This document shows, one piece after another, positions 24,837 to 28,971 of a stretch of DNA of 32,597 bases (position 1 is its first letter; the number at the start of each line of letters is the position of its first letter). The DNA comes from Candidatus Nomurabacteria bacterium (lineage in GTDB: Bacteria; Patescibacteriota; Minisyncoccia; Phycocordibacterales; CAIZLB01): assembly GCA_943356525.1 (NCBI GenBank), contig CALRFG010000001.1:141919-174515 (forward strand), written 5' to 3'. Position numbers and translations under genes: made by a program. The notes below the pieces were generated by a model, which saw only the letters and a list, made by a program, of their open reading frames with translations, was not told the origin of the DNA and made no database searches.

Positions 24837-27572
24837 ATGCCACCATTAAACAACTTTACTACACGTGCCAAAGAGGCTATACGCCGTGCACATGAACTTG
24901 CTATCGAAAGGGGGCAAACCAACGTTTCGCCTATGCATTTACTCGTTTCTTTACTAACTCAGGAAGATTCTGTGGTTATTTCATTACTTGAAAAGATGGA
25001 TGTTGACTATATATTAATGACTGATAACGCTTTTGAAGCCATAGATGGAGATTCAACTATTTCAAATACTTTGTCACCTGCTTATCAGCTTTTTCTTACT
25101 CCAGAGCTTATAGCTCTTATGGAAAATTCTGGAAAAGTCGCAACCGAGATAAAAGACAACTTCGTATCAGTTGAACATCTTTTTACTGCACTTTTTGATA
25201 GTATGACTCCTGCTCGTGAGCTTATAGAAAAGTTTAAGATAGATAAAGAAAAATGTATATCAACTTTAGAATTTTTAAGATCACAAAAAGATGCAAAAGG
25301 TGTAGAGGGAAATACTGATGCAAAAAAATCTAAAGCACTTGCCAAATTTACTCGCAATTTAACAGCACTTGCTCGAGATAATAAACTAGATCCTGTTATA
25401 GGACGTGACTCTGAGATCGCTCGTGTCATACAGATACTTTCTCGTCGTACAAAAAATAATCCAATACTTCTAGGTGAAGCTGGGGTTGGAAAGACTGCTA
25501 TAGTTGAAGGCCTTGCAAACCGCATCGCTATGGGTGATGTCCCAGAGTCACTGAAAAACAAAGAATTACTTTCACTTGATATGGGATCGCTGGTCGCTGG
25601 TACAAAATATCGAGGTGAATTTGAAGATAGATTAAAAAATATATTGAAAGAGATAGAAAAATCAGACGGAAAAGTTATTTTATTTATGGACGAAACGCAT
25701 ACTATAGTTGGAGCAGGAGGTGCTGAAGGATCACTAGATGCATCAAACATGTTAAAGCCTGCCCTTGCTCGCGGAGAGTTAAAGGCTATAGGTGCAACAA
25801 CACTTCGTGAATATCAAAAGCATATTGAAAAAGATCCAGCTTTGCAAAGACGTTTTCAACCTGTATACGTTGAAGAGCCTTCTATTGAAGATGCCACCGC
25901 AATACTTCGCGGTCTTAAAGAAAAATATGAACTATTTCACGGTGTTCGTATACTTGATGAAGCTATAGTTGCTGCGGTCTCTCTATCATCTCGATATATA
26001 CCAGATAGACAATTGCCAGATAAAGCGGTTGACCTTATAGACGAGGCTGCCTCTACTCTAAAGATTTCTTTGGAAAATAAACCACAAGTTATAGAAGATG
26101 CACACAGAAAGATACTTCGTCTTGAGATTGAGAAACAAGCCCTTTCAAAAGATCCGGAAAATAAAGATATAAAAACTCGTATTAAAGGTATAGAAAATAA
26201 TATAAAAGAAATTAAAGATTCTGTATCAGATGTTGAAGGAAAGTGGAATATTGAAAAAGAGTTGATAACAGCTATTAAGGATTTAAAGAAAAATATAGAA
26301 ACATTAACTCAAGAGTCTAACAAAGCAGAAGCAAAAGCCGATCTTATAAAAGCCGCTGAGATTCGTTATGGAAAATTACCTATCATGCATTCTGATCTTG
26401 AAAATAAAATCAAGAAACTTCGAAAACTAGATACAACAAAAAGAGTGCTTAAAGAAGAGATAAACGAAGCTGACATTGCCTCTGTTGTTTCTTCATGGAC
26501 TGGCATACCTGTGTCACGCATGTTGGAAGAAGAGATCAAAAAACTTTCCAAGTTGGAAGAAGTTCTTAAGGCAGAAGTTATAGGACAAGACGATGCTGTT
26601 AAGAAGATATCAGATACTATAAAAAGATCTCGTATGGGTATACATGATCCGTCCCGTCCACTAGGTTCATTCATATTCTTGGGTCCAACAGGTGTTGGTA
26701 AAACAGAGCTTACAAAATCTCTTGCCAAGTTTATGTTCAATGATGATAAGGCTTTGATACGCGTAGATATGTCAGAATTTGCTGAGCGTCATACAGTTTC
26801 AAAACTTATCGGTGCACCTCCAGGTTATGTAGGACATGAAGACTCAGGTACACTTATAGATAAAGTTAAACACAGACCTTATTCAGTTATACTTTTTGAT
26901 GAGATAGAAAAAGCTCATCCGGAAATATTTAACATACTACTTCAAGTGCTAGACAACGGTCGTTTAACTGATTCAAAAGGAAAAACTGTAAACTTCAAAA
27001 ATACTATTATTATCATGACATCAAATATTGGTGCTCAATTTATCGATAAGATGCAAAGTATTGGTTTTTCTTCAGCTGATAATGATGCCGATGTGTATGC
27101 AGGTGTTAAAGATAAAGTAATGTCATCTTTGAAAGATTATTTTAAACCTGAGTTTTTGAACAGACTTGATGAGATTATATTATTCGATGTATTGTCACAT
27201 AATTCTATTAGAAAAATTGTCGACATAGAAGTTAAAAAAGTTCAAACAAGACTTTTGGAAAAAGGTATACATCTAGTTTTCAAAGATGCGGTTTATGAGT
27301 TGTTGGCTAAGGAAGGGTATAACCCACAATACGGTGCACGTCCTTTGAGACGACTTATTCAAAGTAAAGTTTTGACACCACTTGCATCTATGATGATAGA
27401 TAAAGGTTTGATTGCTAATAGACAAGTTATTATTGATGTTGATAAACAAGGAGAGTTGAGTTTTGAGGATAAGGCTTTGGTTAGTGTTCGTGAGGTTAAG
27501 GATGTAAAAGATGCGAAGGTTGAGAAAATCAAGAAAGTAGGAAAGAAAAAGAGTTTGGTGAATAAGAGATAG
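24837..27572 (+). CDS. clpB: Hsp100 AAA+ chaperone, ClpB-type middle domain plus ClpC/ClpA-type IGF loop
   Basis: N domain, NBD1 GEAGVGKT, long coiled coil ending [13 protein letters not shown]2 [24 protein letters not shown] and GARPLRR. Confidence 0.93.
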
Positions 27573-27582
27573 GTGGTGTGGC

Positions 27583-27612
27583 TTTAATTGTGGTGAATTC
27601 GCTGTAATTAAA
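27583..27612. repeat. Palindromic unit A (variant of the KilA-N internal palindrome)
   Basis: TTTAATTGTGGTGAATTCGCTGTAATTAAA; 11 Watson-Crick plus 4 G.T positions; would encode FNCGEFAVIK. Confidence 0.85.
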
Positions 27613-27628
27613 AATAGAGTGGTGTGGT

Positions 27629-27658
27629 TCTAATGTTATTGAATTCAATAACATTAGA
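27629..27658. repeat. Palindromic unit B
   Basis: TCTAATGTTATTGAATTCAATAACATTAGA, perfect 30-bp palindrome; would encode SNVIEFNNIR. Confidence 0.9.
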
Positions 27659-27704
27659 TATGTATTAAGTTTGTTATATATAATTATTAAAAAAATTTAA
27701 AACT

Positions 27705-27857
27705 ATGAAAAAAATAAATACAAAAACAAAAATGTTATTTAAGTTACCTGCTATAAATAATCAACATTTTTACAGAAAAATTAAAAACAAAATAGACCCA
27801 ACTCATAAAGATTATGATCCAAGGTTGCATTATTTAGTGGAAAAGCATTTAAATTAA
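27705..27857 (+). CDS. Small basic hypothetical protein, 50 aa
   Basis: MKKINTKTKMLFKLPAINNQHFYRKIKNKIDPTHKDYDPRLHYLVEKHLN*; A-rich start context; TATAAT at 27679-27684. Confidence 0.5.
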   Translation: MKKINTKTKMLFKLPAINNQHFYRKIKNKIDPTHKDYDPRLHYLVEKHLN

Positions 27858-27961
27858 GGTGTTTCTGGTTTTTGAATATATATCTTTACTTTACTAAGTC
27901 TTGTGCGTTTCTTTATCATTTCTTTATGAGAACTTTAACCTGATTTTGTTAAGGTTTAAGG

Positions 27962-28768
27962 ATGAAAAACATTAAAGTAAAAAATATAGATATATCAATA
28001 ATTTCAAAAGATAAAAATGAGTATATATCATTAACGGATATTATTAAAGCTAAAGATGGAGATTTCTTTATTTCTGATTGGCTTAGAAATAGGAATACTA
28101 TTGAATTCTTAGGTATCTGGGAACAATTAAATAACACAGATTTTAACTATGGCGAATTCGCCATAGTTAAAAGTTATGCCGGATTAAATAATTACAAATT
28201 AAGTGTTAAAGAATGGATCAAAAAGACCAATTCTATAGGATTACAAGCAGTCTCAGGTCGTTATAAGGGTGGAACATTTGCACATAAAGATATTGCCTTT
28301 GAATTTGCTATGTGGATTAGTCCTGAGTTCAAACTTTGTCTTATAAAAGAGTTTCAAAGATTAAAAGATGAAGAATCTTCAGATAGAAGATTAGAATGGA
28401 ATGTAAATAGATATTTAACCAAAATTAATTACAAAATCCACACAAACTCAGTAAAACAAAATATAATCATTCCAAATAAAATAAAAAACTCAAGCATTAT
28501 ATACGCCAACGAAGCAGATATTTTAAATATGGCATTATTTGGTATAACTGCAAAAGATTGGAAGTTGAATAATAAAGATTTAGAAGGGAATATGAGAGAC
28601 TATGCAGATGTTATTCAGTTAATATGTTTATCAAATCTAGAGGTCTTGAATAGTGAGTTTATAAAATCAGGACTCGGTCAAAAAGAAAGATTGATAAAGT
28701 TAAATGAAATAGCTATATCTCAGATTACTTTGTTGGTAAACAATAATACTATCAAGAAACTTATCTGA
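27962..28768 (+). CDS. KilA-N domain DNA-binding protein
   Basis: YISLTDI, WLRNRNTIEFLGIWE, GRYKGGTFAHKDIAFEFAMWISPEFKL.LIKEFQRLK and YANEADILN.ALFG.TAKDW, typical of the ~270-aa bacterial KilA-N family. Confidence 0.92.
   Translation: MKNIKVKNIDISIISKDKNEYISLTDIIKAKDGDFFISDWLRNRNTIEFLGIWEQLNNTDFNYGEFAIVKSYAGLNNYKLSVKEWIKKTNSIGLQAVSGRYKGGTFAHKDIAFEFAMWISPEFKLCLIKEFQRLKDEESSDRRLEWNVNRYLTKINYKIHTNSVKQNIIIPNKIKNSSIIYANEADILNMALFGITAKDWKLNNKDLEGNMRDYADVIQLICLSNLEVLNSEFIKSGLGQKERLIKLNEIAISQITLLVNNNTIKKLI
28141..28172. repeat. Palindromic unit C (in frame inside KilA-N, residues F61-K70)
   Basis: TTTTAACTATGGCGAATTCGCCATAGTTAAAA, perfect 32-bp palindrome encoding FNYGEFAIVK. Confidence 0.92.
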
Positions 28769-28769
28769 G

Positions 28770-28799
28770 TTTAAAGGCATCGAAATCGATGCCTTTAAC
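28770..28799. repeat. Palindromic unit D
   Basis: TTTAAAGGCATCGAAATCGATGCCTTTAAC; 13-bp perfect arms; would encode FKGIEIDAFN. Confidence 0.88.
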
Positions 28800-28809
28800 A
28801 ACTTGTTTA

Positions 28810-28839
28810 TCCAACCTGGTTGAATTCGACCAGGTTAAT
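28810..28839. repeat. Palindromic unit E
   Basis: TCCAACCTGGTTGAATTCGACCAGGTTAAT; 24-bp core with one T.G position; would encode SNLVEFDQVN. Confidence 0.85.
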
Positions 28840-28848
28840 AACCTCAAT

Positions 28849-28877
28849 TTGCCTTTTACCTCAAAAAAAGATATATT
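28849..28877 (+). promoter_or_regulatory. Promoter for tRNA-Tyr/rpmG
   Basis: TTGCCT-N17-TATATT, ending 8 nt before the tRNA 5' end. Confidence 0.55.
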
Positions 28878-28885
28878 GTAGCTAC

Positions 28886-28971
28886 GCGCAGATGGCGGAG
28901 TGGTCAATCGCATCTGACTGTAAATCAGACGTCTTCGGGCTACGTAGGTTCAAATCCTACTCTGCGCACCA
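28886..28971 (+). tRNA. tRNA-Tyr(GUA), CCA encoded
   Basis: GCGCAGA/TCTGCGC acceptor, TCTGA-CT-GTA-AA-TCAGA, long variable arm with TTCG loop, GGTTCAAATCC, ACCA. Confidence 0.97.

Follow-up and report, generated by a model that had tools for sequence, protein, structure and literature searches.

A palindrome embedded in KilA-N genes is selected at the DNA level and is a putative self-site of the encoded protein

Within a 32,597-nucleotide stretch of DNA from Candidatus Nomurabacteria bacterium (contig CALRFG010000001.1, positions 141,919 to 174,515), to which we refer as the window, a gene for a KilA-N protein of 268 amino acids is inserted between the clpB gene and the gene for tRNA-Tyr. A perfect palindrome lies in frame inside this gene, and four further palindromic units of the same general pattern, two on either side, bracket it. 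The five units, named A to E in the order of their positions, make up a feature that is real, strongly non-random and family-wide. Selection on it acts on DNA, not only on protein: synonymous codons of the in-gene unit are frozen, its two-fold symmetry is kept through paired changes and its type is linked to the N-terminal module of the protein, while the flanking units were carried in between clpB and tRNA-Tyr by an island. As the best explanation we propose, with a probability of roughly 0.45, that each palindrome is the putative cognate double-stranded DNA site of its own dimeric protein and would serve autoregulation, self-recognition or both.

The units lie where the initial annotation of the window had placed them, with starts at 27583 (A), 27629 (B), 28142 (C), 28770 (D) and 28810 (E), and none of them is assigned a strand. 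The underlying pattern, TYYAA-N7-GAAWTC-N7-TTA, is matched eight times in the window (both strands for A, B and C, a single strand for D and E), against 0.01 matches expected by shuffling (100 shuffles, the largest count being 1). Common to all types are the outer TTTAA and the central CGAATTCG, and the 6-7 bases between them define the arm type. Unit C is a perfect palindrome in frame in the KilA-N reading frame, as had been noticed; it extends over 32 bp (28141-28172) and comprises codons 61-70 plus one base on each side. Among the extragenic units, B (27629-27658) is perfect over 30 bp and carries a foreign arm type, as do D (28770-28799), which pairs perfectly over 13+13 bp around a mutated centre, GAAATC, and E (28810-28839), which has one mismatch and is the final element before the right edge of the island. 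Unit A (27583-27612) has the same arm type as unit C and is decayed, with four mismatches (11 of 15 pairs are Watson-Crick). The finer details of the initial annotation, namely the peptides read from the units, the periods of 46 and 40 nt and the GTGGTGTGG ahead of A and B, all proved correct. When folded as single-stranded DNA, units B, C, D and E reach -10.0, -13.7, -11.7 and -7.4 kcal/mol, respectively (z from -3.7 to -9.9), and the folding of unit A is weak (-1.7 kcal/mol, z -1.6).

Such units are found at one place in the genome. Among the 74 GAATTC sites in its 626 kb only two, B and C, have at least 12 perfectly paired flanking bases, and the remaining 72 have at most two. A genome scan for dispersed copies, which had been suggested as a check, thus locates the long GAATTC palindromes at this locus only, and the units are not scattered like REP elements. 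They are also unlike the usual hairpins of this genome, which are terminators composed of an A-run, a stem and a T-run: the units end with TTAAA, TTAGA or TTAAC, and no T run characteristic of an intrinsic terminator follows. A search of Rfam with the window matched two tRNAs, and the best match of the palindrome was a chance-level miRNA (E 0.075).

The protein belongs to a very large family (at least 8000 candidates, all at E <=0.001, the best 120 being 63-100% identical), which extends over Patescibacteria, Bacillota, Bacteroidota, Spirochaetes, Proteobacteria and DPANN archaea. DNA of homologs was collected for 80 genome loci, of which 77 were aligned (the other three lacked the segment by the regular expression used first), and later for 160 loci. 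At 156 of these 160 loci a unit is present at the same place in the gene, and four gave none by the filter applied. Fifty-seven of the 156 in-gene units are perfect 30-mers, and 47 are one identical 30-mer, the family consensus, which occurs in organisms of very different base composition. The encoded ten residues exist in several variants (FNYGEFAIIK in 60 of 120, FKLLEFEQFK, FKPLEFEGFK, FNVTEFGNIK, FNRVEFDTVK and FKLVEFDQFK), each of which pairs residues with reverse-complement codons. Variants of this kind had been mentioned in the initial annotation, and they exist: FKLVEFDQFK, FKPLEFEGFK and others occur among the homologs, and DNA reading as FKGIEFDAFK, likewise mentioned there, lies inside a KilA-N gene of a genome of the same genus (G013:C12). 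A scan of the phylum recovered 33 sites in 29 of 401 genomes, about 24 of them near-palindromic by eye, and a reversed control gave hits in five genomes, once each. Among the individual loci, the degraded KilA-N genes L104 and L105 keep perfect palindromes, the latter with no open reading frame (ORF) of 60 codons over the units. At another locus (L072, 3139-3260) an insert of about 60 nt, a hairpin in its own right, follows the palindrome immediately and interrupts the homolog.

Selection at the level of DNA is evident both from synonymous codons and from compensation. In the 77 aligned genes, which come from many phyla, the entropy of synonymous codons is close to zero only at codons 60-71, versus about 1.8 bits at four-fold degenerate codons elsewhere, and individual codons are frozen completely (GGC in 63 of 63, GCC in 62 of 62, ATA in 45 of 45, ATT in 72 of 72 and GAA in 77 of 77). 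As regards symmetry, 94.3% of the cells pair in the 50 distinct in-gene 30-mers, against 83.6 +/- 0.7% after shuffling and 31-51% when the partner columns are slid. Changes on both sides of a pair account for 63 cells versus 14.8 +/- 3.1 in shuffled sets, a number that none of 500 shuffles reaches, and they involve seven of the 15 pairs. At the level of amino acids, the compensatory pairs are K with F, N with V or I, P with G, L with E or Q, and V with D. Arm covariation among homologs had been put forward as a check, and its outcome is that symmetry is kept through double changes. Frozen synonymous codons and double changes together indicate selection on the nucleotide sequence and on its two-fold symmetry, and the family offers a rare clean case of a coding sequence that is under a protein constraint and a symmetric nucleic-acid constraint together. 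Mismatches in these 50 distinct sequences are of the A.C kind as often as of the G.T kind (36 wobble and 43 non-standard cells), and the commonest in-gene variant has an A.C in the middle of the stem. Since A.C is as frequent as G.T, there is no sign of the mRNA strand alone being what matters, and the lack of strand bias is in better accord with duplex DNA and a protein of two-fold symmetry than with a hairpin in the mRNA.

As judged by sequence comparison, the arm type follows the N-terminal DNA-binding module of the protein and not its C-terminal half. The window protein is 0.79-0.88 identical to proteins of five other arm types over residues 140-268, and 0.48-0.52 identical over residues 1-100. 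With proteins of its own type from other phyla the pattern is opposite, the identity being 0.69-0.70 in the N-terminal and 0.55-0.60 in the C-terminal part, which argues that the KilA-N module and the palindrome embedded in it are inherited as a unit and reassorted with respect to the C-terminal half. In a comparison of 152 distinct genes, pairs with flank identity above 0.82 never differ by three or more of the 14 arm bases, the highest flank identity that goes with at least three arm differences being 0.81; arm types switch only where the surrounding N-terminal domain is deeply diverged. In the 73 pairs with flank identity of at least 0.85, 0.17-0.22 arm bases differ, which is below the divergence of the flanks.

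Extragenic units of the family type were found at 14 of the 160 homolog loci, 11 of them within 340 nt upstream (the nearest 9-75 nt from the start codon) and three within 231 nt downstream. Two related loci contain arrays of five and of seven to eight different units, which stand in the same order, differ by whole units and are partly spaced at a 24-nt period with a shared TTTAAA joint; the in-gene arms at the array loci are of the common type (TTATGGC or TTATGTC). At two loci units stand between hsdM and a KilA-N gene that is followed by hsdS. A number of extragenic arm types recur as in-gene types of other alleles, and an A.C-mismatched sequence, one of the commonest in-gene variants, is present in a unit of the L168 array. 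These shared types and shared asymmetries mark the extragenic units as short copies of in-gene elements, and they are dynamic and linked tightly to these genes. All 44 are free of stop codons in the register of the gene; a null model with pooled composition gives p of about 0.0006 and a column-preserving one p = 0.40, and for the latter reason stop-freeness is not counted as evidence. Two palindromes of another kind (AATTGCG.../AATTGTGAACGC...) lie inside the arrays, at L168:1290-1350 and L133:185-235, and are conserved between the two loci. Elsewhere (L107, G013:C74), a Bro-N gene of 281 amino acids stands between two GAATTC-type units of different arm types, at 452-481 and 1394-1423, one about 65 nt before its start and the other 2 nt past its stop.

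The initial annotation held that the units bracket a module inserted between clpB and tRNA-Tyr, and comparison with relatives bears this out. The junction was inspected in 14 genomes of the same genus that have both flanks on one stretch (G001, G007 and G012 were left out). In eight of them the island is missing and the junction is empty, with 96-242 nt between the BLAST matches and no unit, and the 3' end of clpB adjoins the tRNA-Tyr promoter. The other six are occupied, by KilA-N genes of other arm types (G016, G011, G010, G013), by a Phd/PIN pair (G003, G010) or by other genes (G010, G013, G008), and the spacer is thus a hot spot with differing cargo across the genus. In the window, the left host flank is clpB itself (24837-27572, + strand; Pfam AAA_2, ClpB_D2-small and Clp_N), and the right one (28845-28971, + strand) comprises the tRNA-Tyr promoter region and tRNA-Tyr (28886-28971, found by ARAGORN and Rfam), with a stretch (AATTTGCC...) that is common to empty and occupied sites of the genus. 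Sequence common to the empty sites starts about 5 nt past unit E. In G011, G016, G010 and G013 the stop codon of the KilA-N gene abuts the tRNA promoter and no unit D is present there, which makes D and E additions in the lineage of the window. A strain variant in unit E (T28821C, run X6) makes its palindrome perfect.

Units of several types recur at this site and in the genus. At the position of unit A, both G003 and G011 hold a unit that is 97% identical over 31 nt to the stretch of unit C in the window, yet the gene in G011 is of another type and G003 has no KilA-N gene there. The arm type of unit B recurs within the KilA-N match of G010:C27 and also in G003, where its position in the island is the same, and the KilA-N gene of G013:C12 contains the arms of unit D around a GAATTC centre. 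A pattern free of any symmetry requirement detects 19 sites in 11 of 18 genomes of the genus and none in the reversed control; all 19 are near-palindromic, they represent about 14 arm types, and copies residing in one genome differ from one another. In G003 and G010:C19 perfect units persist with no adjacent gene at all. A 50-codon ORF between unit B and the KilA-N gene (27705-27857, + strand) was considered as a partner gene and rejected: it has no Pfam or PHROG match of its own, and 33 of its residues align locally to the C-terminus of an intact antitoxin of 103 amino acids at the same site in G003, whose ORFs are Phd_YefM and PIN by Pfam. The antitoxin and the PIN toxin are intact in G003 and G010, and the ORF of the window is a 3'-end remnant of such a Phd/YefM-type antitoxin gene.

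The KilA-N gene itself (27962-28768, + strand) codes for an N-terminal KilA-N domain and a C-terminal domain of no known family. The Pfam match (PF04383, 4.5e-22, 78.4 bits against a cut-off of 23.8) covers residues 9-135, that is 127 residues over 101 profile positions, and is the sole KilA-N match of the whole genome. Pfam gives KilA-N alone, NCBIfam gives no match for the protein, and the C-terminal domain falls only into unnamed clusters of the protein atlas. Among PADLOC models, the protein matches PDC-S22, a candidate single-gene defence system, with an E-value of 2.6e-117 (residues 2-267 on model positions 5-273 of 281), as do three homologs of other arm types; it also matches PHROG 2657, labelled 'transcriptional regulator'. 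Neighbours of the homologs, scanned at 67 of the 80 genome loci (123 ORFs), belong most commonly to restriction-modification systems (N6_Mtase 6, Methylase_S 6, ResIII 6, HsdM_N 5), and many homologs form part of operons, oriented like the genes around them. Phage records seldom contain the family (17 of 50,697); in Staphylococcus phage EW and the Streptococcus satellite Javan279 the gene is located between the repressor module and the integrase, and both carry the palindrome. The PDC-S22 match, the restriction-modification neighbours and the placement in phages would fit a role in defence, an activity for which the family is a computational candidate only (PDC-S22).

Structure prediction supports a dimer. 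The predicted homodimer scores 0.64 against 0.00 for the best of three controls; the mark is reached by 20 of 30 proteins whose solved structure is a pair of identical chains and by one of 23 solved with a single chain, counts that hold only roughly here, as we used an alignment of our own. Contacts agree to at least 87% between runs, the pLDDT of the partner is at least 76, and the predicted interface is symmetric, with residues 61-70 outside it. The KilA-N protein is accordingly predicted to form a symmetric homodimer. A Foldseek search against the PDB gave nothing at E <=0.001, its best hits being weak matches to DdrC, and a profile search of PDB sequences returned one chance-level match.

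For a putative protein site of this kind there is a studied precedent. BstA, which mediates abortive infection and is encoded by prophages, combines a KilA-N-like domain at its N-terminus with a second domain (Owen et al. 2021, PMC8585504). According to that paper, its activity is switched off by aba, a DNA element of 63 bp (29 bp upstream and the first 34 bp of bstA) that exerts its effect as DNA and only with the BstA variant to which it belongs; bstA is placed downstream of cI there, and cognate BstA/aba pairs are proposed to prevent a counter-move by foreign decoys (PMC8585504). The family studied here is similar in having a two-domain protein with a KilA-N-type domain at the N-terminus and a separate C-terminal domain, the two halves having separate histories, and an element that overlaps its own coding sequence and would be variant-specific. 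The copies of phage EW and of the Streptococcus satellite likewise lie in a lysogeny module beside the repressor, and in both cases a variable N-terminal part is joined to a more interchangeable rest. Inside the gene of the family, the element is under selection at the DNA level and its type tracks the N-terminal module; its recognition by the protein is putative and suggested by sequence comparison.

On these grounds, each palindrome may be a binding site of the dimer encoded by its gene. Unit C would be a self-site that recombination cannot separate from its gene, and two roles can be envisaged for it: an intragenic operator that would hold expression down wherever the mobile gene lands, and a self tag that would neutralise the protein, as aba does for BstA. 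Units A, B, D and E would then be short copies of self-sites, A of the resident type and B, D and E of the types of other alleles, and they would most likely provide additional binding sites or ones of foreign type (as decoys or for cross-regulation), or else be by-products of a process that copies sites. Binding, the geometry of a dimer on the palindrome, a function in defence and the role of the flanking units are what we infer here. The initial annotation had left open whether the units are silent donor cassettes or operator or decoy sites of a protein that recognises DNA resembling its own coding palindrome; the latter, putative as it is, fits best, and the donor cassettes found no support. 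In the literature on KilA-N palindromes, on PDC-S22 and on ORF6N/Bro-N sites, the combination of a palindrome encoded in a KilA-N gene with a layout of protein and tag was not found, and it is apparently new for the family; the listed paper that names PDC-S22 is a genome survey. Among the listed follow-ups of BstA, none dealt with the mechanism of aba binding. The element gives the listed but untested candidate PDC-S22 a concrete and cheap handle, consisting of one protein and one duplex with a matrix of types. If the likeness to BstA is true, self-immunity by DNA tags would be far wider than proteobacterial prophages, and the arrays of foreign-type tags would amount to an anti-defence device of a new kind.

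A number of observations weigh against this proposal. Binding of a duplex through its conserved centre and ends alone would not force the variable middle to be symmetric, and for this property a hairpin or cruciform fits equally. One arm type is shared by 119 of 161 typed in-gene units across phyla, and orthogonality of types is accordingly no general property of the family. The genome, which is 92% complete, has a single KilA-N gene, and units B, D and E thus have no cognate protein there. A self-site poorly explains these three points, i.e. the symmetric middle, the majority of one type and the foreign units in a genome with one KilA-N gene. In addition, the mismatches of A and E, five in total, are all G.T on the + strand, for which the chance is about 1 in 32 if transitions give G.T and A.C equally; this is a weak hint of single-strand folding and suggestive only. 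The AlphaFold2 model of the monomer is poor (mean pLDDT 60, pTM 0.40), and we therefore make no statement on which residues face the DNA. The parallel with BstA has its own weak points. As described in that study, aba is not a palindrome, has terminal direct repeats and lies at the 5' end of its gene, whereas the element of the family is a palindrome of 30-32 bp in the middle of the domain-coding region, and the extragenic arrays of foreign types have no counterpart in that account. Moreover, one aba copy on the chromosome gave no immunity according to the same source (PMC8585504), and the gene of the window is chromosomal. Finally, at E up to 1 PADLOC yielded PDC-S22 alone, and hence no BstA sequence match, in a release whose inclusion of a BstA model was not checked; the resemblance is set by the KilA-N-type domain and by the logic of the system.

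Several other explanations have to be weighed against a double-stranded protein site. It is unlikely, though far from negligible, that the units act through structure alone, as hairpins or cruciforms used by a process of recombination, replication or copying that moves them and marks the borders of cassettes. Such a process would account for the variable middle that stays complementary, as a stem needs, and for the units on both sides of the Bro-N gene and before the Phd/PIN pair of G003. It would also be compatible with the 24-nt arrays with shared TTTAAA joints, which differ by whole units between homologous loci, with the insertion directly beside the palindrome in L072, with a palindromic unit triplicated in frame in an ORF6N gene of the same genome (described below) and with the one-strand G.T mismatches of A and E. 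Close relatives differ by gains and losses of units, at the edges of cassettes (after the stop codons of clpB and of KilA-N), and with such behaviour at the edges of inserted genes they may be recombination sites or scars, as the initial annotation had listed among its readings. However, no enzyme is at hand. The annotation had remarked on the absence of a recombinase or reverse transcriptase from the window, and none was found there among PF00589, PF01797 and PF00078, the sole families searched; the only reverse transcriptase (RVT_1) match of the genome is on another contig (C5:14149-14691, 7.3e-21, in a 305-codon frame). The units are not dispersed in the genome, and their sequence is frozen where compensated or wobble changes would keep a stem: the invariance of GGC in 63 and GCC in 62 genes points to sequence-specific recognition, and a purely structural role does not predict that the arm type tracks the DNA-binding module. 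Were the units nevertheless to function as hairpins, they would represent a new class of cassette-border element. That they are elements of RNA, i.e. mRNA hairpins that control processing, stability, termination or translation, perhaps through binding of the KilA-N protein itself, seems quite improbable to us. Intercistronic hairpins are a known way of tuning operon expression, most extragenic units lie in a 5' leader or directly after stop codons, many homologs are in operons co-directional with their neighbours, and as RNA units B to E fold with -14.6 to -19 kcal/mol, unit A doing so on the + strand only (-7.8 versus -0.4 kcal/mol on the - strand). Nonetheless, an RNA stem is at odds with in-gene A.C mismatches as frequent as G.U, with the missing T run and Rfam match and with the absence of wobble-neutral synonymous changes in the main clade.

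Two further alternatives remain. Symmetry could be a by-product of what the peptide requires combined with hairpin-templated mutation, the flanking units being gene debris with no function of their own. Quasi-palindrome correction by template switching is an established mutational process, F61, E65, F66 and K70 are invariant or nearly so and are reverse-complement partners, unit A is visibly decaying, and the degraded genes L104 and L105 retain perfect palindromes. Yet a protein constraint cannot freeze third codon positions across phyla of differing composition, debris would not form units of 24-30 nt with shared joints in arrays, and perfect units persist where no gene is adjacent (G003, G010:C19), which makes this explanation very improbable. 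Diversification by cassettes, in which the extragenic units would be silent donors copied into the ten-residue segment, deserves hardly any credence. As in known antigenic-variation loci, where silent cassettes lie beside the gene, the units adjoin the gene, often as upstream arrays, and are stop-free in register; the latter is explained by position-specific base composition, as stated above. The lack of any near-identical pair with different arms among the 152 distinct genes argues against the 30-bp segment being exchanged, the flanks change more than the arms do, the arm type is linked to about 100 surrounding residues and not to 10, and the array loci keep in-gene arms of the common type. 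Mapping of reads for alleles in which A, B, D or E replaces C had also been suggested; no joined or replaced form at C was present in contigs of four other runs, which are unable to show rare variants.

Among systems with similar elements is parS inside parB/spo0J, a palindromic site of a dimeric DNA-binding protein located in the protein's own gene and conserved at the nucleotide level; the protein family is unrelated, and parS is not known to have many arm types that track a protein domain or arrays of different types beside the gene. The attC sites of integrons resemble the units in being imperfect palindromes whose ends are conserved and whose middle varies but is self-complementary, and each cassette border has its own. 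They are 57-141 bp long, have extrahelical bases and R and L boxes and need an adjacent IntI integrase, whereas the units of the family are 30 bp long, often perfect, have one coding copy and no adjacent integrase: the sole Phage_integrase match of the genome is at C1:55435, about 115 kb off (C1:141919 is the first position of the window). REP elements, which go with a RAYT transposase, are short palindromic units that flank the gene of a protein presumed to act on them, and the palindromic elements of Rickettsia, inserted in frame in genes, are palindromic DNA read through as protein. In this case, however, the genome has no match to the Y1 transposase (PF01797), the units are not spread over the genome, those next to a given gene all differ in type, and the in-gene unit has a fixed, conserved place in the family as opposed to sporadic insertion.

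A parallel exists in a second family. The ORF6N-domain gene of the same genome (C2:60955-61632, L195:1429-2106) contains three in-frame palindromes with the core TCACAATTTGTGA and differing self-complementary arms, which encode three LRSQ[FI].T repeats (the Pfam match covers 125 residues on a profile of 86 positions). Of nine ORF6N loci from the class, five have an odd palindrome of 27 nt at the in-gene place by the filter applied, with compensated arm variants in two, and at one locus a further unit lies upstream. A DUF3800 gene (Pfam 2.1e-16) also stands between two palindromes of the TCACAATTTGTGA kind whose arms differ, at C1:84937-84971 and 85870-85902 (L202); the first of them begins a few bases past the stop codon of the preceding gene, the same layout as in the KilA-N bracket. 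Two unrelated families of phage-type DNA-binding domains thus share the layout. One could go further and imagine a self-referential specificity module, in which the palindrome is the protein's own site and the ten residues encoded by it (in a predicted helix, 63-72) are part of the reading head; this is a long shot. It is equally doubtful that a change of arms would alter site and reader at once, with arrays as a decoy library that disarms foreign KilA-N proteins, and there is just as small a chance that the same principle would hold for ORF6N-domain genes too.

The perfect palindrome has a technical consequence. Logan unitigs (k=31) of several runs end or begin at 28143-28170 with an overlap of 28 nt, and read depth from KilA-N genes of other organisms piles up on the 60 bases around it. 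We read the contig breaks at this place as an assembler effect at a perfect palindrome; as unitigs of k=31 break there, KilA-N genes will often be split in short-read assemblies. A skip of 135 nt was seen in a single contig of run X6, and since this run holds many other KilA-N genes, the skip is not interpreted.

The leader before the KilA-N start (27908-27961, + strand) recurs upstream of other accessory genes of the genome. The stretch 27908-28000 (CTTTATCATTTCTTTATGAGAACTT...) is matched at G000 C1:85036, C3:47763, C3:38895 and C6:7261, several of the ORFs behind it begin like DUF3800 proteins, and, to go by this sequence recurrence, it may be a shared promoter of mobile accessory genes. 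Lastly, Mannheimia phage vB_MhS_3927AP1 (L199, 2438-2668) encodes a truncated homolog of 76 codons that ends six codons past the palindrome; the centre of this palindrome is GAATTA, and a terminator is annotated on the opposite strand within the ORF, upstream of the palindrome.

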